This document shows positions 3,812 through 56,262 of a stretch of DNA of 64,000 nucleotides, piece after piece. The stretch covers positions 703,157-767,156 of the forward strand of contig CAZSDS010000001.1 of assembly GCA_964605735.1 (NCBI GenBank), in the 5' to 3' direction. The translations under genes were made by a program, and so were the position numbers. Source of the DNA: an uncultured Candidatus Saccharibacteria bacterium (GTDB taxonomy: Bacteria; Patescibacteriota; Doudnabacteria; UBA920; O2-02-FULL-48-8). How positions within the stretch are numbered: the first letter of the stretch is position 1; each line of letters opens with the position of its first letter. The notes beneath the pieces were generated by a model that saw nothing but the letters and a program-made list of their open reading frames with translations, did no database searches and was not told the DNA's origin.

Positions 3812-4486
3812 TTATAACAATTTTCCCGACATTTTTCGAGTCTTCAAGAAAAGCTGGAAAACATCGTACTTTCGTTTTAAATACAAACCTGGTGAATTAA
3901 AATACATGTACTTATACAGTTTCAAGCTGTCTTTCGTAGAATAAGCTAGTTGATATGATCTACGGCTTTCGTATAGATGGGGTTTCATAATTCTAAGCTC
4001 TGTTTGGAGTATGTAGTCTAATTGTTCGAGAAATGGTTTACTCCCGCTTGTAAAAACTGTTCTCAATCTTCTTGGGTGACTATTCTTATATTCAATTAGC
4101 ACGGAGCCATCTCCATCGAAATAGCCACGAATAAAATGTTTTAGCTTTTGCTTAGATAGGGCTGGAAAAATCATGGAAAGCGATTTGTTAGGTCTTAGGC
4201 CAATTTTGAATAACTCATTGTAAAGCACATGATTTCCGATTCGTAAAAAATATCTTGCTTGTCGTGTCATGGTTGCAGGTAGAGTAACTATTCTATGCTC
4301 AGATTTAAGCGAGTTTTTTACAATTAAGATTAACTCTTTATCGATACTACTCGCTCTAATATATTTCCCTCTTAAATATGTAGCGTCCTCAAGGCTGCCA
4401 TCTGCATATAGATAACCTAGAATATAAGCTGATTCATTGGTTATTTTTGAAAAAAATTTTTCATTAACTCTATATTTTATGCCCAT
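3812..4486 (-). CDS. LAGLIDADG-family homing endonuclease (free-standing, two motifs)
   Basis: Two LAGLIDADG motifs (ILGYLYADGS and IRGYFDGDGS). The ORF is AT-rich and ends 11 bp from tRNA-Cys. Confidence 0.75.
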   Translation of the reverse strand: MGIKYRVNEKFFSKITNESAYILGYLYADGSLEDATYLRGKYIRASSIDKELILIVKNSLKSEHRIVTLPATMTRQARYFLRIGNHVLYNELFKIGLRPNKSLSMIFPALSKQKLKHFIRGYFDGDGSVLIEYKNSHPRRLRTVFTSGSKPFLEQLDYILQTELRIMKPHLYESRRSYQLAYSTKDSLKLYKYMYFNSPGLYLKRKYDVFQLFLKTRKMSGKLL

Positions 4487-8171: not shown

Positions 8172-8549
8172 CTACTCCTCGATAACTTCCTCTTCCACAA
8201 TTTGCACCTGCTTTGGCTCTTGCATGCGACAGTTGCCTACGAAAAGCGCGCCGTTTCTTATTTCGAGTTTACTGCACGCGATATTTCCCAGCACCCGGCC
8301 AGTCTCCGCAATTGTCAGCGAGTTTTTAATCGTTACATTCCCCTTAACCACTCCGGCTATGGTGGCATTATTGGCAATAAGATCAGCGTCAATCTGCGCG
8401 TTTGGGCCTATAATCAAATCCTGGGACGTATGCACTTTCCCGGAAACGATCCCGTCAATTCTGATATTGCCCTGGCTTTTTAGTTCACCCTCCACGCGCA
8501 TTGCTGTGGCAATTACGGTTTCCGGATTTTGTTCCATTCGGTTTGGCAT
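8172..8549 (-). CDS. bactofilin (DUF583) cytoskeletal protein
   Basis: Repetitive beta-helix pattern (IxGxV.G.V...LIIG..A.I.A.L...ATIAGVVKGNVTI...) and an acidic C-terminal tail. Confidence 0.75.
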   Translation of the reverse strand: MPNRMEQNPETVIATAMRVEGELKSQGNIRIDGIVSGKVHTSQDLIIGPNAQIDADLIANNATIAGVVKGNVTIKNSLTIAETGRVLGNIACSKLEIRNGALFVGNCRMQEPKQVQIVEEEVIEE

Positions 8550-8550
8550 G

Positions 8551-9015
8551 TTACTTTGCTTCTTTAATTGCCTGCTGTTCTTCTTCGGTCAGCTGGGATT
8601 TTGAGATTCCTTTTTCAACCTCCTTTGCGTAGACTCTGTTTCCTTCGCGGCCATGCAGAGAGGAAATGACCACGCCGCTGTTGTCTGCATCAAGCAGAGC
8701 GATGACAAAACTGATGCTGCCGCCTGCGTCGTCAAACGGATTAAACCTGATAAAGCCGATTTTCTGGAAATTGTTTTTGTTGGCAGTTGCCAGACCGCTG
8801 ACAAACTGTTCTAAATGGTCAATCTGGCTGTTTATTTTTTTGATGGATTGTTCATGGGAAGCAATGACGTTGTCCAGTTTTTCAGTTACGGCGCCGTCGT
8901 AAAACTCCTGTCTTATGCTGTCTATGTTTTTGACGCGCAAAAACAGCCACACCCACATAAATAACACAAGTACGGACAGCCCTGCGGCACCCAGTGCAAT
9001 ATATTCGTAGTTCAT
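8551..9015 (-). CDS. DUF4446 family membrane-anchored protein
   Basis: N-terminal TM, then the IRFNPFDDAGGSISFVIALLDADNSGVVISSLHGREGNRVYAKEV signature typical of DUF4446. Confidence 0.65.
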   Translation of the reverse strand: MNYEYIALGAAGLSVLVLFMWVWLFLRVKNIDSIRQEFYDGAVTEKLDNVIASHEQSIKKINSQIDHLEQFVSGLATANKNNFQKIGFIRFNPFDDAGGSISFVIALLDADNSGVVISSLHGREGNRVYAKEVEKGISKSQLTEEEQQAIKEAK

Positions 9016-10747: not shown

Positions 10748-10767
10748 TTGTTTTGGTGTCTAGTTGG

Positions 10768-12066
10768 TTAGTCAACCTGTCCGGCTGGCAGTTGTTTGGA
10801 GGAAAGGGCAAGTTCGAGTTTTTCCGCCATGCGCTGGGAGCTGCGCAACGGTATTCCCACTCCCATTTTGCTCTTTGGCAGGTTCAGCACTTTCTGGAAA
10901 GATTCATAATCGATTATATTTACGATTCTTTCGCGGATAATCTCATCAAGTCGTTCGATTTGCAGGTAGTCCAAAGTTCCTTTGTATCCTTGCAAAAGCC
11001 ATTTTCGGATCAGCATCATTTCTTCGTAAGGAGGATTTTCCGGGTTGGTTTCAAAAATTTTATGGATTTCGTCCAGTTTGGCTTTTTCCTGGATCAGATC
11101 CTCCACAAACAAACTGATCTTGCTCGCTTTTTGGAACCACAAGCCAATTCCACCTTCTTTGTAGGGGCGGTCCAGTTCCCATAAAAACTGCTGAGCAGTA
11201 ATTTTTCTATCGAGTCTGTCGCGGATCAGTTTTTGGAATCGTTCCATTTCTTCCCTTGAAAAACCCCGCAGGAACATGCTTGAAAGTGACTTGGCGGCAA
11301 CCTCGTTTGGTTCGGCCTGCTGATCAATTTGCCCGAACATATGTTTGGTGATTGATTTTCTCAGTGTTTTCGGAGTCGGGGTTTCTGTTTTTACAACCTG
11401 CCCATCTTTGATGTAGAAAATTTTCTTGGCATCGCGCAAGCTCCAGGCTTCGTGAGTGACCATGATGACAGTGCGGTTGTCTTTTTCGTTCAGCTCTTTC
11501 AAGAACTCTAGAACTTTTTGGGAGTTTTCAGAGTCAAGGTTTCCCAGCGGTTCGTCAGCGATTAATATTGGGGGGTTGTTCGCCAGTGCGCGCGCTATGC
11601 CGACGCGTTGTTGTTGTCCGCCGGATAATTCATAAGGCAGGCGCTCCGCCAAATTGCTGATTCCCAATCTGTCCAGCAGTTCCATGGCTCTCTTGCGGCG
11701 CCTGTCAGCGGAAATCCCAAGGAAAGCCATTGGCAAAGCCACATTATTGGCCACGCTCAATGTTGGAATCAGATTGAATTGCTGGAAAATCATGCCAACC
11801 CCCACCTGGCGGTAAATTGCCAGTTCCTGGGAAGTAAAATTGGCGATGTCACGGCCGTTGATTTTCAATTCACCGGCCTGCGATTTTTCAATGCCTGAAA
11901 TAAGGTAAAGCAAAGAAGTTTTCCCGGATCCGGACGGCCCAAAAAACGCGGCATACTCTCCCCTGTTGATGGTCAAGTTGATGTCTTTAAGCGCCCACGT
12001 TTCAGAGGGCTTGTCTTTGTTGTACCAAAAATTAACTTTGTTAAGTTCGATGATCGGCTCAGCCAT
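10768..12066 (-). CDS. ABC transporter ATP-binding protein (MacB/LolD-like) with ~200-aa C-terminal extension of unknown function
   Basis: Walker A GPSGSGKTS, signature LSGGQQQRV, Walker B ILIADEP. 432 aa against a normal 230 or so. Confidence 0.8.
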   Translation of the reverse strand: MAEPIIELNKVNFWYNKDKPSETWALKDINLTINRGEYAAFFGPSGSGKTSLLYLISGIEKSQAGELKINGRDIANFTSQELAIYRQVGVGMIFQQFNLIPTLSVANNVALPMAFLGISADRRRKRAMELLDRLGISNLAERLPYELSGGQQQRVGIARALANNPPILIADEPLGNLDSENSQKVLEFLKELNEKDNRTVIMVTHEAWSLRDAKKIFYIKDGQVVKTETPTPKTLRKSITKHMFGQIDQQAEPNEVAAKSLSSMFLRGFSREEMERFQKLIRDRLDRKITAQQFLWELDRPYKEGGIGLWFQKASKISLFVEDLIQEKAKLDEIHKIFETNPENPPYEEMMLIRKWLLQGYKGTLDYLQIERLDEIIRERIVNIIDYESFQKVLNLPKSKMGVGIPLRSSQRMAEKLELALSSKQLPAGQVD

Positions 12067-12086
12067 TTTGAAATTAAAATTACGTT

Positions 12087-12530
12087 TTAAGCGAATCGTT
12101 CAATAACAGCAACCATGTCCTGCGGCAGGTGATCATCTTTGACCAGGTATTCATCTGCGCCGAGCTCTTTGGCCTTTTTGCGGTACTTGGATTCTGTGAA
12201 TCCGGAGAAAATTATGACGACCGTATTTTTAAGTTTGGGGTTGCCTTTTATTTTTTTCAAAAGCTCAAATCCGGTTTCGTCAGTTCTGGTTGATTTGTTG
12301 CCGTCAATCATTGGCATGGACAAATCTAAAAGGACCAACGAAGGTTTTTTCTTGGGGTTCATGATGACTTTTTCCGCTTCGTTTATTCCGGCGGTTATCG
12401 TCAGTTCGAACTTATTTTCCAGCCCGTGCAGCCAGAAAATATCTTTTATGTACATTCGGACAATTTCACTGTCGTCAACCAGCAAAACCTTGGTTTTTTG
12501 CTTCTTTTTCGTTGCGGTTTTTGTTGTCAT
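12087..12530 (-). CDS. stand-alone response regulator receiver domain (CheY-like)
   Basis: KVLLVDDSE...LLDLSMP...K conserved Asp/Lys positions. Confidence 0.75.
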   Translation of the reverse strand: MTTKTATKKKQKTKVLLVDDSEIVRMYIKDIFWLHGLENKFELTITAGINEAEKVIMNPKKKPSLVLLDLSMPMIDGNKSTRTDETGFELLKKIKGNPKLKNTVVIIFSGFTESKYRKKAKELGADEYLVKDDHLPQDMVAVIERFA

Positions 12531-12582
12531 ATGGGTAAAAATTTTCAGGTTTATTATATCACAAATCTGCTCAGGAAGAATA

Positions 12583-12611
12583 AAAACCCCTCAGTTTTGA
12601 GGGGTTTTTTT
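12583..12611. terminator. bidirectional intrinsic terminator
   Basis: AAAAA-CCCCTC-agtttt-GAGGGG-TTTTTTT. Confidence 0.7.
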
Positions 12612-12622
12612 AGAAGCTTCAA

Positions 12623-15600
12623 TTACTGTCGCAAGAACTTGAAGGTGTCTTCAAAATTTTTGAAGATGACATCCAAAATTGACTCTGTCTGGCGCGGCAC
12701 TACAATTGTTCTGACTGGGAACGAGGTGGTGTTGCCGGACTGGTCAGTGGATTCGATCTGAATGCGGTAGATGCCGCCTGGTTTAAGCGTGGTCAGGATG
12801 ACTGTGTGTTCCGTGACTGTGTTGTTGGTAATTTCCACTTTATTGGTCAGCGGCCTGTCAGCAGCGCCTGTTCCTTCTTCGTAACGGACAATTGAAGTGG
12901 CTGGTTCATTCGTCTTCCACGCGACAATTGTCTGGGTGCGGTCCTGTCTGCCAGGAACCAGCGCGGTTTCAATCTTCAAACCGCTGATTTCCGGCGCTGA
13001 CTCATCTTGCGTTGTGGTGATGATTGTTGGGGCTCCGCCTTCAATCATGTTGCCATTGGCCGCGTAGCCGTAAACCGTGACTTCATAAGAGGTTGCCGGC
13101 AGCAGGTTCTCAATTACCATTGAGTGGCTGGTTGTGCGGTTTTCGTCAGATTTCTGCAAAACTTCACTTGTGGCCATGTTCTTATACTGCACCACGGTGG
13201 TGGTTGCTGTTGGTGTTGACCAGGAAGCGCGGAAAGAGTTGTTTGTAATTTCCGTGATGCGGCCTTGCACCGGCAGAGGTCTGGTTGTGAAAGTCTGTTC
13301 CCTGCCCTGACCAACTGCTCCTGGTATGCTGAAGCTTTTTGGCAAAATTCTGTACGTGGTGTTTGGTTTGAGGTTAACCAGTTTGATCTCGTGTTGAGTA
13401 ACTTTAGTTGATGTGTTTGAAGCCTCGTTTGGATATTCTGTACTGCCGGCTGGAACCTGGGATTCTTCCGCGTAGTTCAAGACAGAAAAGGCTTTAATGT
13501 TTGTGCGCCACCTTACAGTTGCGCTGTCCGGGGTGATGTCCACCACTTCAGGCCGGTCAATGAATGGTGGAACCAAGCTAGGCAAGGCTGATTCAATAGC
13601 CTCTTCAATAGCCGCCTGGAATTGCTCAGCATCTTCAATATCAATACTGCCTTCAGTGAAGTACTTGGTTTCAAGGTTTGCCGGTGTGTCTGTTTTTGAG
13701 TTTCCGCCTTTGTCCACTGCTTTTACGCGGTAGTAGTAAGTTGTGCCCATTGTCAGGCCGCGCATTTGAATATTATGCTGCTGGGCAAAATCAGCGCTGG
13801 AAGCAGTAAGCCCATAATCTTCTGTCTTGCCGTATTCAACTATACCGATGGTGTCTTCATTGGTGCTGAAGGCGATTTCTGCAGAAAATGAAGTGATGTT
13901 ATTCGCCACGACTCCGGTAATGTTAGGCGCAGTGGTATCTAGGGTAACGGATGACCCTCCTCCCCCGCCTCCAACCTGCTGGATAATGGTTGTTTCGTCA
14001 GTGGTGAACTGTCCGACGTCAGAAATTGTTTCATTTCCTGCCTCATCAGTTGATTTTACTCGGAAGTAGTAAGTGGTGTTTTCTTCAAGTCCGGTAATTG
14101 AAACCACGTGGAAAATGGACAACGTTTCAATCAGGTCAGTTTCGGTATCAAGGTCATCCTCTGCCAAGCCCCAATCCAGTTGTGAAGTGGCAAGCTCATT
14201 GGTTTGCCAGATCACAACAGCAGCCGTGGCAGCAATCACCGGCGTGTCGATTCCGGTAATGACAGGCGCCTGGTTGTCTGTTGTGGTAACAAAGGAGTAG
14301 TAACTGCCGCCATTGGTGTCAGTGGTTGTGTTTTCCTGGTCGTCCGTGGACTGGACTGAGTAATAATATGTGGTGCCCGCGTCCAAGCCAGTCAGGTTCA
14401 CTGAGTGCTGGAAAGGAGCTGAGCCGCCGACCAAAGATGCAGTTCCAACCTGTGTTGGGTTTGCCAGGGTCGGGCTTGTTGAATAGTTTACGAAAGAATC
14501 CGAGTCTGCGTTTGTAGTCCAGAATATTGTTGCCGAATGATCACCAACGCTGGTTTCCGTGACACCGGAAACTACCGGGCCGGATACTGTGGTAAAGTTA
14601 TACCCTGCCCCGTCATTGTCTTTGGTGGTGGCGTTCCCCAGCGGGTCATTGGATTTGACTCGGAATAAGTAAGTGGTGTTTGGAGTCAGGTTGCGCAGAG
14701 TGACTGAGTGCGAGGTGACAAAAGATGAAACCGCCTGGCCTACGTCAAAGGTTGTTGCCGGGGAAATAGAAAAGTCCACGCGAGAATCAGAAAGCTCGTC
14801 AGTGGTCCACGTAATAGTGGCTGTGGTTGACTGGACATCAGCCACGGTGATGTTCGTGATTACCGGGGCAGAGTTATCCGTACCACCTTGTCCGTCAGCG
14901 GTGTCTGAAACAACATCAGAGAATCCGCTGATGTCTCCGTCAGTGTCCACTGTGCGGACTTTGTAGTAATAAGTGGTTTCTTGGTCCAGGGTAAAGTCTG
15001 CGAAGTAGTTGACGTTAATGTCCGTGATGGTGGAATGAAGAGAGAACGAACTACCGTCCGTTGACCGGTAGATTTCATACTGTTCAAACTCAGAACCTGC
15101 TTCCTCAGTGTAAACCTCCCAGGAAATAAATTCGGTGTAATTTTCTGCGCTGACATTGGAGATGTCCTTGATAAACATCTTGTTAGGGTTTGGGGTGTTT
15201 GGCGAAACAGCTGTTACAGAAGTGATGTTTCCGTTTGCGTCCATAACCTGCAGGTAAACCGTGAAGTGATTAGGAATTGGGGCAAAGTTCCAATTTGGGC
15301 TTAGGTCTATAGAGTTCCCGCCCGCGTCCTGCCATTCACCGGAAGTCGCGTTGCGTCCGTCCGCAGACATGTCGGAGTTGTTGGATAACCTGTAGGACAG
15401 CCCCGCGTCATCATCAGCCGTAATTTGAACCTTGCCCTGGCTTACATCCAAATTTAAAGTGACACTAGGCGGAGTCGTGTCTAATGTGAATTCTCCGGAT
15501 GTGGCTTGGGCAGTATTATTGGCTGATTCGTTGTCGTTTATCGTCACGCGAACTTGCGCGGTAGTCACATAGTTGTCCGGTATCTGGCTGAGGGCGTCCC

Positions 15601-17539
15601 AAACCGCAGTGTATGAGGTATAGCCAACCTCCTCCACTTCCTTGTTGTTTGTGTCGCCTGCGGCCAGGGATTGCGAATTGATCGCGACCCATCCCCCGCC
15701 AATATTATATTGGAACGAAGGTGTCACAAAGCCAGGGGTTGTTGTGCCGGTAGTTGTGTCAACGTCACGAATATTATATGTGATCAGAACCTTGCCGACG
15801 TCAGGGCTGTCCGGGTCAGTCTCATGCACTGCTGAAACTGAGTCAGATGGGTCAAAGTTCGGCGGAGCGTTAACAACGTAAGTAACCGTAATACTGCTGA
15901 ATGTTGGCGTTGCAACGCCGTTGCCGCCAAGAATGACCTTGTATTGGAACCACCGGTCATTGCTGCCCGATCTGAGCGGGTTAGATGAGGCAATGGTTAC
16001 GTTGTTGTTTGCTGAAACAAAATAGTTGCTTCCGTCGCACGAACTGCCGGTGTCGGAAAACCCGCACCAGCCGCTCCAGGTTGCGCCATCCGGAGATGTG
16101 CGGATTTGAACGCGGGCGGTTTCTGTGACAGAAGTGCCTGATGCAGTCCAGGCAACCTTTGCCACCAGGGTTTCAGTGTCCCCTGCGTCAAATGGTGATG
16201 AAATCACTTCTGCTCCTGAGTACATCCCACTATATGTGAGCGATGAGCTTGTGATTGGTCTAGGAGTGTCGCTGCCCCCCGTAACAAACGACGCCATGGC
16301 GTTAGCGGTGTTACGAGAATCATTTGTAGTCCAAGTAGCTGTTTCATTCGTTAATGCCGAAGATGATGTCCTATACTGTACCATGTGTTGTCCGTTATCA
16401 CTGCTTACTTCGGTATAACTGGCATTTGGCCCTGAGACTGATGTGGAGCCGACTTGTGTAGCAACACACAACACGAAAACATTAGCAACTGTATTGAGTC
16501 CTGAAGAACAAGGATGGATTGTAGCGGAAATGTTAGAGGTGCTGCCTGTGGTGTCGAGTGGGTCATAATGATCAGCACCAGCAAGTTCAAAAGCATAAAT
16601 TCTGAAGGTTGAACCTACGGTCGCAGCCTGTACTGTGACAGTAGTTGTTCCGCCTGTGACATTTTTTGCGTAATAGATGTGTTCTTGTCGGAAGTTAGTA
16701 CCAGTGAATGAAATTGCAGTAGAGTAAGTGTTACCAGCGTTGTCTGAAGCGGAATAAGCGATTCCAGAACTATCTACCTGCGACATCGCAACAACAATCA
16801 AGTTGCCGGGAGTTACATTCGGAAGTACCGCTTGTGCACTGATTCCTGAGTTAGATCCGCTTGTTTGTTGGACAACCGTTGGCGGGGCAATTGGATAAGG
16901 CACTGCCCTCCACTGCAAGTTTGTACCAGGCGAGGCGAAGGTATGCAGTTGCCCTGGTCTTACCCTCTCCCAAGTTGATCCCCCATTGTTTGATAATTCA
17001 TAATATAAGCTTCCAGTGCCAGCCCCCTCTGTTGCTGTTAGGGTGGCTGAATTTACGGAAGTGCCTGCCGCATTTGCCTGAGTAGATTGGGCAGGGTCTG
17101 TAGTAACCAAATTCGAGTAAGTTCCAAGTTGGATGTTGGATCCTATTAGTGCTCCTGTTTGCGTTGAGTATTTATTCCAATTGGTCTGGTCTGCCGGGTG
17201 GGCCGCTGTTGAGGCACTAACTCCCCCGCTCCAGCTGTTTTGGGTAAAGGTATAGGATGCGGCTGAGCTAGGCGTGCCACCGTACAAAAGAACCCACGCA
17301 AAAATAGCCAACAATAATGTTGTTGCTGACAGTGTTCTCCAGCGCGGTTCGCTGACTTTGAGAAAACCCAGCACTTTCCTTGGAATGACAAAAACAACCC
17401 AAGACAGTTTTCTAAAAAAACTGTCGGATTTTACCTTTTTGTTATTTGTGGTTTTTCTGGGCATGTCAGTCACGTTTGCACTATTTGTGAATGCTGATTT
17501 CTCCGACTGATTTCCCGAACCAATAGGATTTTCATCCAT
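12623..17539 (-). CDS. giant (1638 aa) cell-surface protein with N-terminal signal anchor and multiple Fn3-like repeats
   Basis: An N-terminal TM (LLLAIFAWVLLYGG), Thr/Ser-rich beta-rich repeats with ATITWTT.ELSDSRVDFS-type Fn3 / PAP-N-like units, and a GGGGGGSS linker. Confidence 0.7.
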   Translation of the reverse strand: MDENPIGSGNQSEKSAFTNSANVTDMPRKTTNNKKVKSDSFFRKLSWVVFVIPRKVLGFLKVSEPRWRTLSATTLLLAIFAWVLLYGGTPSSAASYTFTQNSWSGGVSASTAAHPADQTNWNKYSTQTGALIGSNIQLGTYSNLVTTDPAQSTQANAAGTSVNSATLTATEGAGTGSLYYELSNNGGSTWERVRPGQLHTFASPGTNLQWRAVPYPIAPPTVVQQTSGSNSGISAQAVLPNVTPGNLIVVAMSQVDSSGIAYSASDNAGNTYSTAISFTGTNFRQEHIYYAKNVTGGTTTVTVQAATVGSTFRIYAFELAGADHYDPLDTTGSTSNISATIHPCSSGLNTVANVFVLCVATQVGSTSVSGPNASYTEVSSDNGQHMVQYRTSSSALTNETATWTTNDSRNTANAMASFVTGGSDTPRPITSSSLTYSGMYSGAEVISSPFDAGDTETLVAKVAWTASGTSVTETARVQIRTSPDGATWSGWCGFSDTGSSCDGSNYFVSANNNVTIASSNPLRSGSNDRWFQYKVILGGNGVATPTFSSITVTYVVNAPPNFDPSDSVSAVHETDPDSPDVGKVLITYNIRDVDTTTGTTTPGFVTPSFQYNIGGGWVAINSQSLAAGDTNNKEVEEVGYTSYTAVWDALSQIPDNYVTTAQVRVTINDNESANNTAQATSGEFTLDTTPPSVTLNLDVSQGKVQITADDDAGLSYRLSNNSDMSADGRNATSGEWQDAGGNSIDLSPNWNFAPIPNHFTVYLQVMDANGNITSVTAVSPNTPNPNKMFIKDISNVSAENYTEFISWEVYTEEAGSEFEQYEIYRSTDGSSFSLHSTITDINVNYFADFTLDQETTYYYKVRTVDTDGDISGFSDVVSDTADGQGGTDNSAPVITNITVADVQSTTATITWTTDELSDSRVDFSISPATTFDVGQAVSSFVTSHSVTLRNLTPNTTYLFRVKSNDPLGNATTKDNDGAGYNFTTVSGPVVSGVTETSVGDHSATIFWTTNADSDSFVNYSTSPTLANPTQVGTASLVGGSAPFQHSVNLTGLDAGTTYYYSVQSTDDQENTTTDTNGGSYYSFVTTTDNQAPVITGIDTPVIAATAAVVIWQTNELATSQLDWGLAEDDLDTETDLIETLSIFHVVSITGLEENTTYYFRVKSTDEAGNETISDVGQFTTDETTIIQQVGGGGGGSSVTLDTTAPNITGVVANNITSFSAEIAFSTNEDTIGIVEYGKTEDYGLTASSADFAQQHNIQMRGLTMGTTYYYRVKAVDKGGNSKTDTPANLETKYFTEGSIDIEDAEQFQAAIEEAIESALPSLVPPFIDRPEVVDITPDSATVRWRTNIKAFSVLNYAEESQVPAGSTEYPNEASNTSTKVTQHEIKLVNLKPNTTYRILPKSFSIPGAVGQGREQTFTTRPLPVQGRITEITNNSFRASWSTPTATTTVVQYKNMATSEVLQKSDENRTTSHSMVIENLLPATSYEVTVYGYAANGNMIEGGAPTIITTTQDESAPEISGLKIETALVPGRQDRTQTIVAWKTNEPATSIVRYEEGTGAADRPLTNKVEITNNTVTEHTVILTTLKPGGIYRIQIESTDQSGNTTSFPVRTIVVPRQTESILDVIFKNFEDTFKFLRQ

Positions 17540-17715
17540 TTTGTTTTTGTTTCTGATATCTGCTCATTTTGGCAGACAGAAATATATTAACCAACTCAAT
17601 TATACCACAAGAACTTGAATTTGTCCAGCAAAATATAATGGTTGATACTGGCAATTCCAAGAGGTTTACTTAATCATATTTGTTTAAGGAACAAAAGAAA
17701 CTTGTGTTTATGGTT

Positions 17716-19905
17716 GTTTCACGTGAAACACGTATTTAGTCAGATGTTTCACAAGAATTTAAGTCCAAAGAACAGGGCAAAACCTAAATTGCAAAGCTGT
17801 GTCTAAAAACCCCTTAATAACGAGAGAATCAGCTAGATTTCCAAACTATTTCCCTATAAATAAGCATATCAATAAAACATGAAAAATAGGGTGGAAATAA
17901 ATACCGTGAAACAAGGTTATTGCTCAATGTATTTTATTTACGAAAGATGGGACTTCAGAATCAGGGCCCTTTTTCTCAGTTTCACGCATTCTTATTGGGA
18001 GTTGAGAATTTGCCTTTATTTCAAACAATGTTTCACGTGAAACATTGTTGAAATAGCCTTAAAATGTTTCATTTTTTCAAATAGTGTACATTATTGGCCC
18101 AAGTTTTTTGACATAAAATGGCTTATTTAAGCCAATTCTAAGTAGTTTTCATAACCAGTTTCCTAGGATATTAAGGCTGGGGTAGGTGTCTATATTTCGG
18201 CAAATATTACACTTGTGGAACGTTGATTAACTCCCAATAAAATGGTATTCATGCTCAATATACCCTATTCGTGCAAATCTCTATTAGTATTTAGAGTTCA
18301 ATATTTGAACTGCAAAGTAATCCCATCTTATGAAATATTTCGCCAAATAACACTAGAAAATCCCCTGGTAAATTGCGGTTAAATCCTTATTATTTACGCA
18401 AAATCTAGAATTTTTTTGGCTTATCTAAGCCTGTTTTAAATAGATTTTGATTTTGTTTCTTTAGGAATTCGGGGTCTGAATATGTTTCACATGAAACACA
18501 TAGAATGTTTCACATAAGTATGTGTTTCCGCCTTGCTCTTCCTGAGACTGTAAAAAGTGGCTAAATTAAGGGAAAACATACAGTTCTCGAAACTATTTTC
18601 CTAATATATTGATGCACTATATTCCTGTGAAACATACCGCTGTTTCTCAGTGAAACTACTTAGTAATCACTAAATATTAGAGAAATTGCTGTTAAAAGAA
18701 GGATTTGGCCTTGCTGAATAGTTAAAAGATAGTGATCTAACGAGCCAATAACCAATAACGCTAATATTATTGCTATTTTTTGAGTGTTCCACGTGAAACG
18801 TATCCTGGTGCCTACATATAATAGCGTTATCAAACCAAGTAGTCCTGTTGTAGCGGCGATTAGTAGAAAGATATTGTGAGGGGGTTGGTATTGCCATGGT
18901 TCCACGTGAAACGCATGTTCCGCTGTTCTAATGTACTGACCTAGCCCTACACCAAAAATTGGCCTTTCTTTGAATAAAGTGAGTGCCATATCATTAAAAT
19001 CAGCTCGATATTCAATAGCGGGATCATTATCCACTGTTTCCAATGATCTGGGGATAACTAAGTCACTGTAAAACCCTATCAAAATTAGGGTAGAAATCAC
19101 CCCCAATAAGGTCACTAAAAACGCGGTTTTAAAGCGCTTTTTTGCCAAATTTTTTGCAAGGAAATACAGGAGGATGATAGTTGCTGTAAGCCATGCGCTC
19201 CTTGAGAAACTCACAAGTAATCCCCAGGCTAGAATTCCAGCTGTTATAGCGCATAATATAGCCTTGAGTTTGGTTTCACGTGAAACGTTAAGGAGAAAGA
19301 CTAAACAAACAGCCAAAAACCCACCAAGTACATTAGGGTGCGGGAATGTGCCATAAGCTCTTAAAACCTTGGTTCCAGCAATATCCAAAGTAGCGGCCCC
19401 AGAGTCAGTCATTCGAGGCAGATGGTAGCCAATTGTGCTGAATTCCCGGATTTGTTCCACGTGAAACTGTGCTACAGCCAAAATTGACTGAAAAACCCCG
19501 TGAACAAGTAATATGCCAATGATTGGTCTGTGTGTTTGCGGGTTAGATCGTACGTAAATGAAAATGAAAGCATATTCAGCCAGTTTTAATGTTGCATACA
19601 GCCAGGAGTTAAAGTGTTCCACGTGAAACAGTCCAATCAGGCTTATTGCCAAGAGTAAAAGAATTAGTGGCTTTATTTGAAGTCTTTTTTGAGTAAAAAA
19701 ACAGGTGAGTGCCAGGGTTACCACAGCCAAATCACTAGCATAAATAAAGAAAGCTTTGTGGTAAGAAAAGTAATAGTCTATAAAGGCGTCATCAAAATTT
19801 AGGATCGTCCTTAATTGAAAAGGCGCCAAGATAAAGAACAGATAAAGAAGTAGATCTGTTATAGGTATGCTTTGGATTTTCGTAAATAATTGTTTCACGT
19901 GAAAC
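17716..19905. repeat. dispersed palindromic motif GTTYCACGTGAAAC, at least 8 exact copies plus variants
   Basis: Exact copies at 17716, 18030 (inside the 26-bp perfect palindrome 18024-18049), 18786, 18899, 19273, 19454, 19616 and 19892. Variants at 18484 (CACATG core) and 18640 (GTTTCtcagTGAAAC). See F2 for context. Confidence 0.8.
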
Positions 19906-19955
19906 ATTGACTTATTGTAAAAAATATTGTCTGATGATGAAAATTCAAAAATCAT
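18660..19955 (-). CDS. O-antigen ligase / Wzy_C-family polytopic membrane protein
   Basis: Ten or more TM helices; Wzy_C-like motifs RAYGTFPHPNVLGGFLAV and SFSRSAWL. Five in-frame palindrome copies encode FHVE/K. Confidence 0.65.
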   Translation of the reverse strand: MIFEFSSSDNIFYNKSMFHVKQLFTKIQSIPITDLLLYLFFILAPFQLRTILNFDDAFIDYYFSYHKAFFIYASDLAVVTLALTCFFTQKRLQIKPLILLLLAISLIGLFHVEHFNSWLYATLKLAEYAFIFIYVRSNPQTHRPIIGILLVHGVFQSILAVAQFHVEQIREFSTIGYHLPRMTDSGAATLDIAGTKVLRAYGTFPHPNVLGGFLAVCLVFLLNVSRETKLKAILCAITAGILAWGLLVSFSRSAWLTATIILLYFLAKNLAKKRFKTAFLVTLLGVISTLILIGFYSDLVIPRSLETVDNDPAIEYRADFNDMALTLFKERPIFGVGLGQYIRTAEHAFHVEPWQYQPPHNIFLLIAATTGLLGLITLLYVGTRIRFTWNTQKIAIILALLVIGSLDHYLLTIQQGQILLLTAISLIFSDY

Positions 19956-20050
19956 TTTTACTTTGCCGTGTGCTTATTATAATGCTTCGCATAAAAAAAC
20001 CGCTAATGCGGTTTCGTTTTTGAAATTAGAGACGGATTGTAGTGGACTTG

Positions 20051-20542
20051 TTAAGTTTTGTTGCTATTAGCTTTTCTTAATATCCGTATGCTAATTGTTA
20101 ACACTATTAGTTGAGTAATTATGCCCGGCACAGCCCATTGGGGCATGGGGAAGTATTGAACTGGAAAATTGTTCGCCGCATGGTGAAACATCTGAATGTG
20201 GCCAAGTACTGGGATTTTTAAAATATATTGCGACCAAAGCGGTTGGCTATCCAGAATATCAGGCAATAATCCGCCAGCGGCTCCTAAAACAAATGTGCTT
20301 AGGTTAGGGAACTGGAACTTTTTGATCCAAAACGTAAGACCAACTATTGCGCCAATAATGATATCGAATACCACTATTGTCCATGAAAGTTTGTTCCACG
20401 CGTGAATCGCATTAATTGCATCGAGGTGGGGGACAATGTCCAGTATATAATGTGAAACAATGCCAGCGCCTATGGCGTAAAGAAAATGTTTGCGATTAAC
20501 ACCGGCGGCTGCTCCTGCGAGCATGTGTACTGTTGCTATCAT
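20051..20542 (-). CDS. membrane-bound metal-dependent hydrolase-like protein (YdjM/DUF457-like)
   Basis: The VSHYILDIVPH motif and four hydrophobic helices. Confidence 0.45.
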   Translation of the reverse strand: MIATVHMLAGAAAGVNRKHFLYAIGAGIVSHYILDIVPHLDAINAIHAWNKLSWTIVVFDIIIGAIVGLTFWIKKFQFPNLSTFVLGAAGGLLPDILDSQPLWSQYILKIPVLGHIQMFHHAANNFPVQYFPMPQWAVPGIITQLIVLTISIRILRKANSNKT

Positions 20543-20681
20543 ATGATTAAGTATATCTGAGTCAATCTAATTGTTAAAGCCTTTATAATTCAATTAAAGA
20601 TTGTGAAATGTAATGAACGGTGTTTCATACGGTGCAGGCTTTACATGGGCTTGAATATTAAGTAAAATGAAGTGCGTTGAG

Positions 20682-20756
20682 GCCTTCGTAGCTCAATGGA
20701 TAGAGCTATCCCGTCCTAAGGGAGAGATGGGGGTTCGATTCCCTCCGAGGGCACCA
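20682..20756 (+). tRNA. tRNA-Arg (CCU)
   Basis: Hand-folded: acceptor GCCTTCG/CGAGGGC, D-arm GCTCAATGGATAGAGC, anticodon loop GTCCTAA, T-arm GGGGGTTCGATTCCCTC. One A.G mismatch at the top of the anticodon stem. Confidence 0.6.
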
Positions 20757-20856
20757 AGAAATCGAATACCGGGGGGTTTGCAGAATTGATTATTTTTCCG
20801 CCGCGGTCGACGCTGAACTCAAAAGGGTTATTTATAGAATCAACCAAGATTATTTA

Positions 20857-20930
20857 GGGCCCATGGTATAACGGTAATACGCAACTATGGCATAGTTGAG
20901 TCCGGGGTTCGACTCCCCGTGGGTCCACCA
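20857..20930 (+). tRNA. tRNA-Ala (GGC)
   Basis: Hand-folded: acceptor GGGCCCA/TGGGTCC with G3:U70, anticodon stem CAACT/AGTTG with loop ATGGCAT, T-arm CCGGGGTTCGACTCCCCG. Confidence 0.65.
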
Positions 20931-21208
20931 CAAAAATCATCTTCAATGGAAGGTGTTTTTTGTTTGTATTTTGTTTCACAAAAAGTATCCACAGCCTGGG
21001 TATTCCCAAGCCTATTTCAGTGTGTTAGTAATATGTTAGGCGAGCGCGTTGTACCTGTGGAACATAAATAATTTACAGGGACCAGAGAATTGAATATTCG
21101 TGACTTTGTTGAAGTAACGAACCAATACTCAGCTTGCGGTTAAGCCGTAAGACAACCCAGCGTGGTCAATGTTTCTTTAACGCCTTTTAGCATTAGCAAG
21201 CAAAATTT

Positions 21209-21520
21209 ATGTCAGAACGCGAGGGGGAGTTTAGGCTCGGTAAAAATGAACATTCTCGTGAAACCGAGATGAAACACAATATTACGGAGATCTATAACAA
21301 CAGCGGGAGTGTTGAAGAGTTGGAAAGAAATTTGGATAAGTTTCATGAAGATGAGGAGTTGGTGCTTGAGTTGCATGTGTCTGAAGCTGACCCTGACTCT
21401 ATTACCTATATAATGAACAGGTTTCCTCACGCGCGCGTAGTGATAGCCGCTGATAGGGAAGACTATGATAAACACAAAAATATGTTCCCAATCAGCGTTG
21501 AGTGGCCAGGTAATCAATGA
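21209..21520 (+). CDS. hypothetical acidic protein, translationally coupled to rnhB
   Basis: Its stop overlaps the rnhB start (ATGA). The composition is more protein-like than the antisense ORF. Confidence 0.4.
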   Translation: MSEREGEFRLGKNEHSRETEMKHNITEIYNNSGSVEELERNLDKFHEDEELVLELHVSEADPDSITYIMNRFPHARVVIAADREDYDKHKNMFPISVEWPGNQ

Positions 21521-22182
21521 TTTTTCCAACGTTTAAATATGAAACAGAGAAATACCAAAACGGATTTGGCCTGGTGGCTGGATGCGACGAGGTTGGCATC
21601 GCTCCTTTGGCTGGACCAGTTGTTTCAGCGGCAGTGATTTTGGATAAAGAAAGCGTTACCGGCCGCCGGACCAAATCTAAGTGGTGGTATCGTGTCAGGG
21701 ATTCAAAAACCGTAAATGAGAAAGAAAGAGGGGAGCTTGTTGCTTTCATTAAGGATCATTGTTTGGCGCACGCAGTCGGCATCGTCTCACATGAAACTAT
21801 TGATCAGGTAAACATTTATCACGCCGCCATGCTAGCCATGAAACAAGCGTTAAACAGTTTGACGATCAAACCTGATTTTTTGTTTGTTGATGGTAAGCAC
21901 AAAATAAAAGATTTGTTTGATGTCAAACAAGAAGCGGTGGTTGACGGTGACGCAAAGATTTTGTCCATTTCTGCGGCCAGCATAGTTGCCAAGGTTGCCC
22001 GCGATTCAATTATGAACCAGCTGCATGCCAAGCACCCGAATTACAATTTTCATTTGAACAAAGGATACCCAACCAAGTTTCATCGTGAAGCATTAGTGAA
22101 ACATGGTGCGTGTGAAGTTCACAGAAAGAGCTTTGGTCTGGTCCGGCAAACATTCCAACAAGTATTGCCGTTGCCCGTATGA
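21517..22182 (+). CDS. rnhB: ribonuclease HII
   Basis: GCDEVGIAPLAGPVVSAAVIL catalytic N-terminus and overall RNase HII layout. Confidence 0.85.
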   Translation: MIFPTFKYETEKYQNGFGLVAGCDEVGIAPLAGPVVSAAVILDKESVTGRRTKSKWWYRVRDSKTVNEKERGELVAFIKDHCLAHAVGIVSHETIDQVNIYHAAMLAMKQALNSLTIKPDFLFVDGKHKIKDLFDVKQEAVVDGDAKILSISAASIVAKVARDSIMNQLHAKHPNYNFHLNKGYPTKFHREALVKHGACEVHRKSFGLVRQTFQQVLPLPV

Positions 22183-22727
22183 CCGAACAGGAAATAACGT
22201 ATTTGGTTAAAAACGATCCATGGATGATGAAAGTACTATGCGTGGCTGAGTCTTTGAATCTTCCTGACTGGATGATTGGCGCCGGTTTTATAAGGAATAA
22301 AGTTTGGGATCATCTGCATGGTTTTTCAAACGACACAGTTCCTACAAATGACATTGATCTGATCTATTTTGACAAAGACAACACCTCAACCGATTTTGAA
22401 AAAGAATGTGAAACAAAATTGAAACAGGTGATGGGTGTGGAATGGTCGGTAAAAAACATGGCGCGAATGCATGAGAAAAGCAGTGATGGTCCTTACAAGT
22501 CTGCGGCTGATGGTTTAGCACATTGGGTTGAAACGGCAACTGCTGTTGCCGTTAAGTTGGAGAACGGTGGCGTGAAACTTATTGCGCCATATGGTTTGTC
22601 GGATTTAGTGGGGTTGGTTGTGAAACCAACTCCCTACATGAAAAACAGAATGCAGGATTTTAACAGGAGATACAAAGAAAAAGGTTGGCTTGAGCATTGG
22701 CCTAAGTTGAGAGTTGTGGTCGATTAG
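22179..22727 (+). CDS. nucleotidyltransferase family protein (NTP_transf_6/DUF925-like)
   Basis: The LPDWMIGAGFIRNKVWDHLHG motif. Start overlaps the rnhB stop. Confidence 0.6.
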   Translation: MTEQEITYLVKNDPWMMKVLCVAESLNLPDWMIGAGFIRNKVWDHLHGFSNDTVPTNDIDLIYFDKDNTSTDFEKECETKLKQVMGVEWSVKNMARMHEKSSDGPYKSAADGLAHWVETATAVAVKLENGGVKLIAPYGLSDLVGLVVKPTPYMKNRMQDFNRRYKEKGWLEHWPKLRVVVD

Positions 22728-22751
22728 CATATAATAGTGTGGTTCTGAATA

Positions 22752-22843
<92 letters not shown>

Positions 22844-22861
22844 AATATGTCGGCCCAAAAT

Positions 22862-22888
22862 GAACTGCGTGAAACGCAGTTTTTTGTT
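22862..22888 (+). terminator. intrinsic terminator after tRNA-Ser
   Basis: CTGCGT-GAAA-ACGCAG followed by TTTTTTGTTTG. Confidence 0.7.
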
Positions 22889-22930
22889 TGCCCAATAGAC
22901 AGCGTTCAACCCGGTTGCTAATTATGAAAC

Positions 22931-23533
22931 ATGTCTGAGCAGTCTAAAATAATTGCACTGACCGGACCGTCTGCAGCCGGCAAAACAACCCTGGGGCATT
23001 ATTTGGCTCATCACTATGAAGATGAGTTTGTTCATATTCGGCTGGATGACTATCTTAAGGATCCGGACACTTTCCCTGTAAATGAACGCGGCCAAAAAGA
23101 TTGGGACAACCCATCCAACATTCAATTTGACGAACTGATCGCCCATCTTCATAAGCTTAAACGCGGTGAACCAATTGATTGGCATACCTTTGCCAAGCAC
23201 AAAGATGAACAAGTCTACTATTACACGCTTTATCCAAAGAAATATATTTTGGTGGAAGGGACAATGGTTCTTATGGACGAGGAGGTTAGAAACATGGCGG
23301 ATTTAAAAATTTATTTGGATGTGCCTGTAGAGGTTTCACTGGCCCGCAGGCTGGAGCGGGGTAAGAGGGTGTGGGGGCTGGATCTTGAAGAGTATGACAA
23401 AGAGTATACGATTCCAGTTTTAGAGCGACACAGGAGAGTGGAAAAGTTTCACACAGACTACATTATTGACGGCACCAAACCTCCAAAAGACGTGGCTGAT
23501 GAAGTTTACTCCCTTATTACCAGGGTTTTATGA
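22931..23533 (+). CDS. P-loop nucleoside/nucleotide kinase (uridine-kinase-like fold)
   Basis: Walker A LTGPSAAGKTTL at the N-terminus; about 200 aa. Confidence 0.55.
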   Translation: MSEQSKIIALTGPSAAGKTTLGHYLAHHYEDEFVHIRLDDYLKDPDTFPVNERGQKDWDNPSNIQFDELIAHLHKLKRGEPIDWHTFAKHKDEQVYYYTLYPKKYILVEGTMVLMDEEVRNMADLKIYLDVPVEVSLARRLERGKRVWGLDLEEYDKEYTIPVLERHRRVEKFHTDYIIDGTKPPKDVADEVYSLITRVL

Positions 23534-43322: not shown

Positions 43323-43325
43323 ACT

Positions 43326-53703: not shown

Positions 53704-56262
53704 ATGTATTTAAAACGACTAGAAATTCAGGGGTTCAAATCATTCGCACACAAAACGGTTCTTGAATTTGAGCCTGGTTTGACTGCGGTTGTCGGGCCAA
53801 ACGGTTCCGGCAAATCCAACGTAGCTGACGCTTTGCGCTGGGTCATGGGTGAGCAATCCATGAAGCTTTTGCGCGGAAAAAAATCCGAGGATGTGATTTT
53901 TGCTGGCTCTGACAAGAAAGCCAAACTTTCAATGGCTGATGTAACTCTGACTTTCGACAACAAAGACCGCAAACTTCCTTACGAGTACTCAGAGGTGGCA
54001 TTAACCAGGCGATATTTCCGCAACGGCGAATCCGAATACCTCATCAACAACCAGAAGGTCCGCTTGCTGGACGTGGTTGATGCCTTACTGCGCTCAGGAT
54101 TTGGAGCTTCAAATTACGCAGTCATTGGCCAGGGCACAATTGACCAAATGGTTTTGGCGGGACCGGCTGAAATCAAAAGCCTTGTCGAAGAGGCGGCTGG
54201 GGTCAAGCCATACTACATAAAGCGCGAAAAAACCTGGCGCAAGCTTGAACAGACAGAAGAGAATCTTCAGCGTGTTTCTGAATTGACCGCGGAAATCGAG
54301 CCTCGCTTGAGATCCTTGCGCAGACAGGCCAAACGCATGGAAGAGCGTGAAGTGGTTGCCAATGAGCTGACCGCTTTGCACCTTGAGTATTATGGCAACC
54401 AGTATTACCTTCTGGAAACCAATTTGAACGCGCTGAAAACACAGCTTGAATTGAAGGACAAGTCCATTCAAACAATGGAAGCGCAGATTAATGAATTCCA
54501 GGGCAATTTGGAAAAAGAAGAAAAACAGACAAAGACCAATTTAAGCTTTACGGAAGAGCTTGAGAAGAAGATCAGTTTCTTGGAAGCAAAAAGATATAAA
54601 GTCCAGGAAGAGCTTGCGGAAATTCGCGGCAAATTGAAAGCCCAGGTCGTGCCCGGCAAGACAGATGCGGAATCCCTGAACGTTGAAAAACTTGATTATG
54701 AGCGCCAGCTGGATGTAATGAACCAGAAGTTGAAGGAATTGGATGGGCAACTGCTCGGTGAACAAAAACAGTTTACTGATCTGAAGCATTCCGTGGATAA
54801 TTTCAACAAGAAAATTGAGGAAGCCAAGAACAGCAAGGTTGACCCAGACCAGCTTAGGCGAACCCTTGAGCAATTTGAAAATGAATTCACCCACACATTA
54901 GAGATTCTGGATTCTGAGAACTTTGCGGAGATTAGGCAAAAGTTAAGGCAATTGGTCAGTAAACTGGCTGAAACAAGAAGAAACATCACGCTGGCTGGCC
55001 CGGCCGATTTAAGCGGTTTGCTTATCTCAAAAGAAGAGACTCAGACGCGTTTACATAAACTTGAGCTTAATATTGTTGAACACAACACGCTTCGTCAGAC
55101 ATACCTGGATACAATTGAAAGCTATAACTCCAAGCTTAATCAGATCAAGAGTTTGATGAATGATGATCCGGAAAAATTCAAGTCAGAATTGTTCACCCAG
55201 GAAGAGAAACTGAATGCTTCTTTGAATGAGCTGGTCAGCCAAATAACGGATTTGCGCGAAAACCTGAACAAAGTCAGCCAGCAGGAAAAGGAGAAGAAAA
55301 CCTTCCTCATGGAAGAGGAAAAGAAATTCCGCCAGATCAGTTCAGATTTGTCTCGGCTCAAAGATGAGCACAACCAAGTTTTGGTGGACAAGGCGCGTCT
55401 GGAAACAAGGCTTGAATCTTTGAACAAGGAATCAGAGGCCGCCTTGGGGACCAGAACAGCGGAATTGCCTCAGCATAAAAAACCGGAAGTGCCGGCTGAT
55501 CTGATCAATAAAATAGACAAGCTGAAAAGACAGCTTGAATTGTCCGGTGGTATTGACGAAACTACTTTACAGGAGTATCGGGAAACAGAAGAACGCTACA
55601 ATTACCTGACTCAGCAGTCTGAGGATTTGACCAAGGCAGTTGCTGACCTCAAAACCGTCATTGAAGAATTGGATCAGATCATCAAGACTCAATTCAATGA
55701 AGCCTACAATAAAATTTCAGAAAAATTTGCGGAGTATTTCAGAATTTTGTTCAATGGCGGGCGCGCGCAAATGTCTTTGCAAAGATCAGTTGTGAAGCCG
55801 GAAGAGGGGGATGATGGTCTTGAAGAAACTGAACCTGGTGAAGGTGTTGCAGTTCCAGCCGGAGTGGACGGGGTTCGAGCAAAGAAGCCGCAAACAGAAA
55901 TTTCAGGCATTGAGATTAAGGCCACGCCGCCTGGCAAAAAACTGGCGACAATTGCGGCTTTGTCCGGCGGTGAGCGCGCTTTGACCGCTATTGCATTGCT
56001 CTGTGCGATGTTGGCATCTTACCCTTCACCATTTGTGGTTTTGGACGAAGTCGATGCTGCGCTTGATGAAGCCAATTCCATCCGCTTTGCCAAAATTCTG
56101 GGCACGCTGGCTCACCAGACGCAGTTCATCACCATTACTCACAACAGGGAAACCATGCGCCAGGCTCACACTCTGTATGGCGTGACCATGACTGATGAAG
56201 GCATTTCAAAAATCTTGTCATTGAAACTTGAGCAGGCTGAAAAAGTTGCACCACAACAGTAA
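53704..56262 (+). CDS. smc: SMC-like chromosome-segregation ATPase (short, 852 aa)
   Basis: N-terminal MYLKRLEIQGFKSF...GPNGSGKSN Walker A, long coiled coil, and C-terminal LSGGERALTAIALL...VLDEVDAALD signature and Walker B. Confidence 0.75.
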   Translation: MYLKRLEIQGFKSFAHKTVLEFEPGLTAVVGPNGSGKSNVADALRWVMGEQSMKLLRGKKSEDVIFAGSDKKAKLSMADVTLTFDNKDRKLPYEYSEVALTRRYFRNGESEYLINNQKVRLLDVVDALLRSGFGASNYAVIGQGTIDQMVLAGPAEIKSLVEEAAGVKPYYIKREKTWRKLEQTEENLQRVSELTAEIEPRLRSLRRQAKRMEEREVVANELTALHLEYYGNQYYLLETNLNALKTQLELKDKSIQTMEAQINEFQGNLEKEEKQTKTNLSFTEELEKKISFLEAKRYKVQEELAEIRGKLKAQVVPGKTDAESLNVEKLDYERQLDVMNQKLKELDGQLLGEQKQFTDLKHSVDNFNKKIEEAKNSKVDPDQLRRTLEQFENEFTHTLEILDSENFAEIRQKLRQLVSKLAETRRNITLAGPADLSGLLISKEETQTRLHKLELNIVEHNTLRQTYLDTIESYNSKLNQIKSLMNDDPEKFKSELFTQEEKLNASLNELVSQITDLRENLNKVSQQEKEKKTFLMEEEKKFRQISSDLSRLKDEHNQVLVDKARLETRLESLNKESEAALGTRTAELPQHKKPEVPADLINKIDKLKRQLELSGGIDETTLQEYRETEERYNYLTQQSEDLTKAVADLKTVIEELDQIIKTQFNEAYNKISEKFAEYFRILFNGGRAQMSLQRSVVKPEEGDDGLEETEPGEGVAVPAGVDGVRAKKPQTEISGIEIKATPPGKKLATIAALSGGERALTAIALLCAMLASYPSPFVVLDEVDAALDEANSIRFAKILGTLAHQTQFITITHNRETMRQAHTLYGVTMTDEGISKILSLKLEQAEKVAPQQ

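Follow-up and report, generated by a model that had tools for sequence, protein, structure and literature searches.

Introduction

The parS sequence is the "centromere" of the bacterial chromosome on which ParB (Spo0J) loads, and parS sites normally lie near the replication origin. One parS of Bacillus subtilis is inside spo0J, and single intragenic parS sites are known. In the chromosomal ParABS systems of B. subtilis (the Spo0J sites) and Caulobacter, parS is a 16-bp palindrome (TGTTNCACGTGAAACA) present at multiple sites per chromosome. We examined a stretch of 64,000 nucleotides (nt), called the window below, from an uncultured Candidatus Saccharibacteria bacterium (GTDB lineage Patescibacteriota; Doudnabacteria; UBA920; O2-02-FULL-48-8; assembly GCA_964605735.1, contig CAZSDS010000001.1, positions 703,157 to 767,156), and found the identical palindrome, in perfect or near-perfect form, at nine sites in 2.2 kb. 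Unlike the sites of B. subtilis and Caulobacter, two thirds of these are in one unrelated membrane-protein gene, a Wzy_C (O-antigen-ligase-like) gene; the array has kept its positions across deep divergence and is not beside parAB.

In Myxococcus xanthus a cluster of 22 parS sites occupies ~3 kb and lies 4 kb from parAB and ~35 kb from oriC (PMC3899335). At ~7 sites/kb in M. xanthus and 4/kb here, both are very dense chromosomal parS arrays. The parAB genes of M. xanthus are co-transcribed with the bactofilin gene bacM (PMC3899335), and its BacNOP and PadC proteins position ParB-parS (PMC5703909); a bactofilin gene is also found in the neighbourhood of the array described here. In contrast to M. 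xanthus, there is no parAB within 10-45 kb of our array, which sits at conserved codon positions and is retained in relatives. ParB of Pseudomonas aeruginosa and other species binds half-parS (PMC5961200; reviewed in PMC7022226), and isolated half-sites with these heptamers (GTTTCAC and GTTCCAC) are likewise enriched around our array. The half-sites of P. aeruginosa are genome-wide, whereas here they form a local, one-sided, oriented halo that extends over 3-5 kb and recurs in relatives. Streptococcus pneumoniae has ParB and parS without ParA; they recruit SMC, and ParB is linked to capsule synthesis through CpsD (PMC7022226). Its four scattered sites near the origin differ from the intragenic array here. 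Genomes of the Candidate Phyla Radiation (CPR, or Patescibacteria), to which our host with its genome of ~0.8 Mb belongs, likewise commonly have ParB and are depleted in ParA.

Dense chromosomal parS arrays and single parS sites inside genes are already known. What appears from the sequences to be new is a whole array at orthologous codons of one non-par gene, read in three frames in proteins that are ~33% identical. The CPR lineage of the host and the one-sided halo of oriented half-sites upstream of the gene are further differences. We found no description of parS or ParB in Patescibacteria/CPR in the literature. Chromosome segregation in CPR is essentially undescribed, and this locus provides an easily recognised putative centromere for at least Doudnabacteria-like lineages.

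Results and Discussion

Identity and clustering of the palindrome

The starting point was a 14-bp palindrome, GTTYCACGTGAAAC, that had been picked out of the window from its letters alone (the original prediction). All eight exact copies listed there were recovered, starting at 17716, 18030, 18786, 18899, 19273, 19454, 19616 and 19892 and spanning 17716-19905, against an expectation of 0.00 copies in dinucleotide-preserving shuffles. No further exact copy occurs in the 64-kb window outside the 2.2-kb cluster, and allowing up to two mismatches gains only two sites, a variant with a CACATG core (18484) and a weakly matching one (21784). When one extra base is taken on each side, four sites match perfectly the 16-mer TGTTNCACGTGAAACA (N = T or C), which is the canonical ParB-binding site parS. 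Three of these four are the fully palindromic TGTTTCACGTGAAACA, and the remaining five of the nine sites are 1-2 bases off. Nine parS-like sites were found, six in the Wzy_C-like gene and three in the non-coding gap downstream of it:

17715..17730: parS site 1, perfect TGTTTCACGTGAAACA, within the non-coding gap and 176 nt before the start of the surface-protein gene
18029..18044: parS site 2, perfect 16-mer, core of a perfect 26-bp palindrome at 18024-18049
18483..18498: parS variant TGTTTCACATGAAACA with CACATG core, in the non-coding gap; the same variant is kept as VSCGT sites in orthologues
18785..18800: parS site in the coding sequence, TGTTCCACGTGAAACG, minus-strand reading R-F-T-W-N
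18898..18913: parS site in the coding sequence, GGTTCCACGTGAAACG, reading F-H-V-E-P
19272..19287: parS site in the coding sequence, GGTTTCACGTGAAACG, reading V-S-R-E-T
19453..19468: parS site in the coding sequence, TGTTCCACGTGAAACT, reading Q-F-H-V-E-Q; column occupied in 15/19 orthologues
19615..19630: parS site in the coding sequence, TGTTCCACGTGAAACA, the B. subtilis-type consensus, reading L-F-H-V-E-H; column occupied in 18/19 orthologues
19891..19906: parS site, perfect 16-mer across the probable start codon, reading M-F-H-V-K-Q; column occupied in 13/19 orthologues
18660..19955, minus strand: Wzy_C (O-antigen-ligase-like) polytopic membrane-protein gene (Pfam), host of six parS sites
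17540..18659: non-coding gap of 1.1 kb, AT-rich, lying upstream of the surface-protein gene and containing three parS sites and six isolated half-sites

A chromosomal parS is recognised by the 16-bp inverted repeat tGTTNCACGTGAAACa, which four sites match perfectly and five within 1-2 mismatches. Comparison of 107 sites showed that they vary mainly at positions 1/16 and 5/12 and at the central 8/9; position 5/12 is the known degenerate position of parS. A study of ParB/Noc specificity gives TGTTTCAC-GTGAAACA as the consensus parS (10.1101/724823). Among the literature matches listed for this 16-mer, all concerned ParB/parS, chromosome organisation or origin finding. We therefore consider it very likely that the palindromes are parS and that the nine sites form the chromosomal centromere array of this Doudnabacteria-like Patescibacterium. 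The original prediction had correctly considered selection on the DNA and a dense array of protein-binding sites, while none of its four candidate explanations named parS.

The repeated unit is the 14-17 nt core alone. The flanks of the copies are unrelated, with nothing shared beyond 17 nt, and the sites are irregularly spaced at 113-454 bp. A recent internal duplication of the ligase gene, which would have explained the repeats, is therefore ruled out. The perfect 26-bp palindrome around site 2 exists as described. The gene holds six copies instead of the five first counted, and they do not share one frame: four read FHV(K/E) (19892, 19616, 19454 and 18899), one reads VSRET (19273) and one FTWN (18786), so all three frames are used. 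Of the half-sites reported around the cluster, some have coordinates a few bases off (GTTTCAC at 17979, not 17988, and at 18507, not 18503).

Conservation of the array in relatives

We collected 20 orthologous loci from GTDB genomes, with flanks of up to 10 kb per side, and counted as parS-like any site with at most two mismatches in the 14 specified bases. The gene contained 98 such sites and the 262 kb of flanks only 5. The four best-conserved sites stand at fixed alignment columns in 18/19, 15/19, 13/19 and 12/19 orthologues, and the open reading frame (ORF) is intact and collinear in all of them. The close subfamily comprises 41 clusters at 32-47% identity, after which the score drops sharply. 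Its members conserve MFHVK (at the N-terminus), LFHVE, QFHVQH, VSRET, VSCGT, FHVEP and FTWN, and parS-derived peptides were found in every subfamily protein (41/41) and in none of the more distant Wzy_C homologues (0/79). An exhaustive profile search placed ~34 clusters (at 50% identity) in the subfamily, 33 of them with the peptides; among the next 113, more distant Wzy_C representatives, 19 had 1-4 parS peptides. The array has been kept in the gene since before the divergence of proteins that are now only ~33% identical.

Three more distant loci (L029, L030 and L072) have a Wzy_C paralogue with 5-7 16-mers, perfect or nearly so, inside it or shortly after its end. The layout of L030 is like that of the window, covering the 3' part of the gene and a ~1.2-kb non-coding gap. 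Because the loci were found through a search for Wzy_C genes, a preference of parS for Wzy_C outside the core subfamily is exposed to sampling bias.

These comparisons bear on two of the candidate explanations first proposed. A short perfect palindrome in many copies could be a dispersed repeat of the repetitive extragenic palindromic (REP) or miniature inverted-repeat transposable element (MITE) kind, or a genome-wide motif like those of DNA uptake that happens to be locally dense. The copies are, however, confined to the 2.2-kb cluster, with none in the other 62 kb of the window and almost none in the 262 kb of relatives' flanks. Six of the nine sites are coding, they occupy orthologous codon positions across species, and they lack the common flanking sequence of a repeat element. 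We give this explanation practically no weight.

A second possibility is a restriction-modification or methyltransferase target, or sites for phase-variable recombination or inversion. CACGTG is indeed a type II-like palindrome, and the copies make many inverted-repeat pairs with one another. Conservation spans 14-16 bp instead of 6, however, and CACGTG is neither avoided nor enriched elsewhere, with six occurrences outside the cluster and 14 in the whole window versus 10 expected. No methylase, restriction enzyme or recombinase gene is adjacent. The intact and collinear ORF of the orthologues does not fit recombination, and perfect palindromes cannot define an orientation for inversion. Such a role is extremely improbable.

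Some of the relatives showed further peculiarities. At the 3' end of the Wzy gene of L001 there is a split parS, TGTTTCAC-AGTCC-GTGAAACA, in which two perfect half-sites lie 5 bp apart and encode DVSQSVKH. The DVSQ(P)VKH peptide recurs in many close homologues (P0010-P0017 among them). The Doudnabacteria-type Wzy-parS gene with CPR synteny was also seen in metagenome-assembled genomes labelled Binatia, Methylomirabilota, Acidobacteriaceae and Verrucomicrobiia (L001, L009, L017 and L045), and more distant Wzy_C relatives without parS came from genomes labelled Gammaproteobacteria and Bdellovibrionales (L055 and L064). All six odd labels are probably due to binning contamination in public genomes.

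Selection acts on the DNA

The original prediction had proposed that conservation of the peptides and of the nucleotides be compared in orthologues. The outcome was decisive and favours selection at the DNA level. For the three best FHV motifs in 19 orthologues, codon use was compared with the rest of the same genes. Valine was GTG in 44/44 motif codons and in 22% of codons elsewhere (Fisher p = 6e-27, for sequences that are related to each other and whose synonymous sites should be saturated at 30-45% protein identity). Histidine was CAC in 41/52 motif codons versus 39% elsewhere, the glutamine preceding the motif was CAG in 17/18 versus 41%, and the leucine preceding it was YTG in 12/13 versus 35%. 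The codon after the motif was NAA in 53/53. These choices are exactly those that rebuild the 16-mer. Likewise, VSCGT is always encoded by GTT TCA TGT GGA ACA, the opposite strand of which is the CACATG-core variant of parS. In the strongest purely protein motif, YGTFPHPNV, which served as a control, all synonymous codons are used freely. Over conserved columns, the commonest codon accounts for a fraction of 0.84 in parS motifs (n = 16) versus 0.56 elsewhere (n = 108).

Could the peptides themselves be functional, for example as catalytic or metal-binding histidines, with the palindrome as a by-product? H111 and V112 are invariant in a 32-sequence alignment. Against this, synonymous positions are frozen in these motifs and vary freely in true protein motifs, the same DNA word gives unrelated peptides in three frames, and perfect copies also occur in non-coding DNA. 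Moreover, distant Wzy_C proteins have F, W or V where the subfamily has H, and A or S where it has V; only Q-F-x-x-Q is ancestral. Selection on the protein is thus scarcely credible. From the frozen synonymous positions and the different residues of distant Wzy_C proteins it follows that the selected objects are the DNA sites, which the protein accommodates where possible.

On this evidence MFHVK, LFHVE, QFHVQH, VSRET, VSCGT and FTWN are best understood as parS read in three frames. For annotation, MFHVK, FHVE, VSRET, VSCGT and FTWN in such a protein indicate parS, not a catalytic motif. DNA uptake sequences in coding regions of Haemophilus and Neisseria are likewise a DNA signal that imposes recurrent peptides in several frames, and they are spread over hundreds of genes. 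Here, by contrast, one gene carries all the sites, and the sites are orthologous. The locus is an unusually clean case of a binding-site array and a protein sharing nucleotides over deep time. The DNA signal prevails at synonymous sites and at some amino-acid positions, and this gives a measure of how far a non-coding function can bend a coding sequence.

Above-chance frequency and selection on the DNA, both expected of a chromosomal parS, are found together at this locus (8 copies against 0 expected, 98 sites against 5, and the codon tests).

The host gene and its start

The host ORF is a polytopic membrane protein of the Wzy_C family (PF04932; Pfam E = 2.2e-21, with 76.7 bits where the cutoff is 31.7). 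Its AlphaFold model is all-helical, with a mean predicted local distance difference test score (pLDDT) of 82.5 and a predicted template modelling score of 0.83, and the six parS peptides lie at helix ends or in interhelix loops. A fold search with the model was uninformative, returning only weak matches to SEDS proteins (RodA/FtsW).

The real start of the 431-aa ORF is probably 16 codons later than its first codon, at the MFHVK ATG (19907-19905). Orthologues and the Logan gene call begin there, and residues 1-15 of the longer ORF have a pLDDT below 50. The TG of this ATG supplies bases 1-2 of the parS site at 19891..19906. A -10-like TACAAT ends 6 nt before the ATG. No Shine-Dalgarno sequence is present, and the mRNA may therefore be leaderless. 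If it is, parS would cover +2 to +17 and ParB could block expression of the gene.

The non-coding gap, the half-sites and the neighbourhood

The gap at 17540-18659 was said to be AT-rich and without an ORF of 60 aa or more, and it is: its longest ORFs have 54 and 53 aa, and its GC content is 31-35% compared with ~46% around it and on average in the window. It contains two perfect parS sites, the CACATG variant and the six isolated half-sites. A strong promoter-like site for the surface-protein gene is at 17627-17599 on the minus strand. No Rfam family matched the gap, and a search for remnants of the genes found after Wzy in relatives (Mur ligase, Fic and others) gave no hits. We also considered that the gap might be a decayed Wzy paralogue, in view of weak BLAST hits that looked collinear. 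This was rejected, as the family hidden Markov model scored no better than on shuffled sequence; the weak hints of Wzy were driven by the parS peptides.

Beyond the gap, a block of four genes on the minus strand (9518-17539) encodes an FtsX/MacB permease, an ABC ATPase, a stand-alone response regulator (12087-12530) and a 1638-aa surface protein with seven Pur_ac_phosph_N/fn3 repeats. Relatives are without the block of surface-protein, response-regulator and ABC genes, and their DUF4446 gene is 1.4-3.5 kb downstream. The gap and the four-gene block are therefore specific to this lineage, and the block is probably an insertion. The array extends into this new intergenic DNA, as it does in L030. 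On the far side of the block are two genes that neighbour the parS-bearing gene in every relative examined (L081, L083 and L088 among the loci):

8172..9015, minus strand: DUF4446 gene and bactofilin gene, conserved neighbours of the parS-bearing gene in relatives

In view of the bactofilins of M. xanthus they may, speculatively, be a remnant or a functional partner of the partition locus.

In the main competing explanation another sequence-specific DNA-binding protein, such as a regulator of the Wzy_C-like gene and its neighbours, uses the sites and their identity with parS is coincidental or convergent. An operator array for a regulator of cell-envelope genes was one of the four candidates first proposed and comes nearest to the present reading. 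One site covers the probable start codon and the start of transcription, another two are found upstream of the surface-protein gene, the stand-alone response regulator is at hand, and no parB gene is nearby. On the other hand, the 16-mer matches the pan-bacterial parS consensus exactly, and ParB is nearly universal in CPR genomes. Most sites are away from promoters, five of nine being deep inside the coding sequence, and there are none at the other envelope genes, or any other genes, of the window. The response regulator and ABC genes are also absent from the neighbourhood of relatives that keep the array. We regard such a regulator as very unlikely, and parS as the better account.

Upstream of the Wzy_C-like gene, isolated half-sites are frequent:

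20183..23452: half-parS halo, 11 isolated GTTTCAC/GTGAAAC heptamers upstream of the Wzy_C-like gene

The 11 half-sites in 3.3 kb compare with ~0.6 expected (~19 times the expected density), and of the first nine, eight share one orientation. In the 20 orthologous loci the density is 1.2-1.3/kb at 1-2 kb upstream and 0.4-0.6/kb at 3-5 kb, over a baseline of ~0.08/kb. Downstream it is 0.53/kb in the first kb after the gene and reaches the baseline within 1-2 kb. The orientation is biased in these loci too, with GTTTCAC on the gene-sense strand in 49 cases to 19.

ORF163 (20051-20542, minus strand) encodes a small hydrophobic, weakly YdjM-like membrane protein and directly precedes the Wzy gene in at least 10 orthologous loci as well. 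A hairpin terminator (19997-20014) separates it from the Wzy_C-like gene. ORF163 was considered as the protein that binds the sites and was rejected, since it is a conserved YdjM-like membrane protein and not a DNA binder. Within ORF163, at 20392-20407, there is a variant related to the split parS of L001, with a 2-bp insertion, TGTTCCAC-GC-GTGAAT.

Partition proteins, SMC and the replication origin

The window encodes RNase HII, IF-2, FtsK, RecA, LexA, FtsH, SMC, S16 and TrmD and has 13 tRNA genes, and this housekeeping content makes it chromosomal. The RecA sequence is 100% matched on a contig of 797,183 bp, and the named organisms with RecA at 79-89% identity are Candidatus Doudnabacteria. 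Centromeres of plasmids and phages, such as sopC or parC iterons, are regular direct repeats served by their own parAB on a mobile replicon. The irregular spacing, the lack of an adjacent parAB and the chromosomal context are all different here.

Several observations weigh against a ParB-parS centromere at this place. Neither parB nor parA was found in the 64-kb window or in the 8 kb to its left (Pfam on ~57 ORFs, and tblastn), where GyrA, YebC, RuvC and TyrRS are encoded and there is no parS. In none of the relatives did either gene turn up at a distance of up to 10 kb from the Wzy_C-like gene (tblastn, 87 loci). That ParB is encoded in this genome is assumed. The region covered is ~72 kb of a ~797-kb genome, and other parS sites may exist. 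Neither a dnaA gene nor a DnaA-box cluster was found in the window, and the GC skew suggests an origin elsewhere. Cumulative GC skew rises across the whole window. The gene is at a conserved divergent switch of gene orientation, in the window and in relatives, and skew in gene orientation is -0.09 upstream and ~0 downstream (14 loci and the window). This fits one replichore with a coding-strand effect and not a symmetric origin. An origin at the locus, at first suggested by the divergent strand switch, is thus supported neither by the skew nor by DnaA boxes, of which there is no cluster. From the skew pattern the origin should be beyond the left end of the window, more than 27 kb from the array.

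In a survey of CPR genomes the ParB family (PF02195/K03497) was present in 1717 and "equally distributed", GyrB being found in 1985 (PMC6744442, Supplementary Data 1). The ParA-like family was present in 617 and "depleted" (Meheust et al. 2019, PMC6744442, Supplementary Data 1). With ParB widespread and ParA depleted, a ParB-parS-SMC system that often works without ParA, by analogy with S. pneumoniae, is plausible in CPR. In other bacteria the ParB-parS partition complex recruits SMC (PMC7022226), and the window has an SMC gene:

53704..56262, plus strand: SMC gene, 852 aa, possible downstream partner of a ParB-parS complex

The length of 852 aa implies a much shortened coiled coil. Typical bacterial SMC proteins have ~1150-1200 aa.

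From the sequence of the sites we infer that the array serves ParB binding and spreading, SMC loading and segregation. ParB, encoded elsewhere in the ~0.8-Mb genome, would nucleate as dimers at each of the nine sites, close into clamps dependent on cytidine triphosphate and slide onto the neighbouring DNA. The resulting single partition complex would mark the locus for segregation and probably load SMC. With ParA uncommon in CPR genomes, such a system may do without this protein, as the orphan ParB of S. pneumoniae does.

The location of the array in a membrane-protein gene suggests a further idea, which we put forward as unlikely. In these very small cells, transcription, translation and membrane insertion of the Wzy_C-like protein, if coupled (transertion), would hold the ParB-parS centromere at the membrane and so provide ParA-independent anchoring or segregation, and DUF4446 and bactofilin might help in the tethering. 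Loading of ParB over the start codon could, in addition, couple envelope-polymer synthesis to the chromosome cycle. The long-lasting association with the gene, the parS clusters at other Wzy_C subfamilies and the conserved neighbourhood are consistent with this idea and are not tests of it.

Other features of the window

An IS200-like Y1 transposase and a free-standing LAGLIDADG endonuclease ORF (2231-2683, plus strand, and 3812-4486, minus strand) lie beside tRNA gene clusters. ARAGORN identified a tRNA-Ile gene with the anticodon TAT (UAU) at 36046-36120 on the plus strand. This tRNA is uncommon in bacteria, in which AUA is usually decoded by a lysidine-modified CAU tRNA. At 42891-45143 on the plus strand, four tandem small genes have T4SS_pilin domains, one of them fused to a Yip1-like domain.

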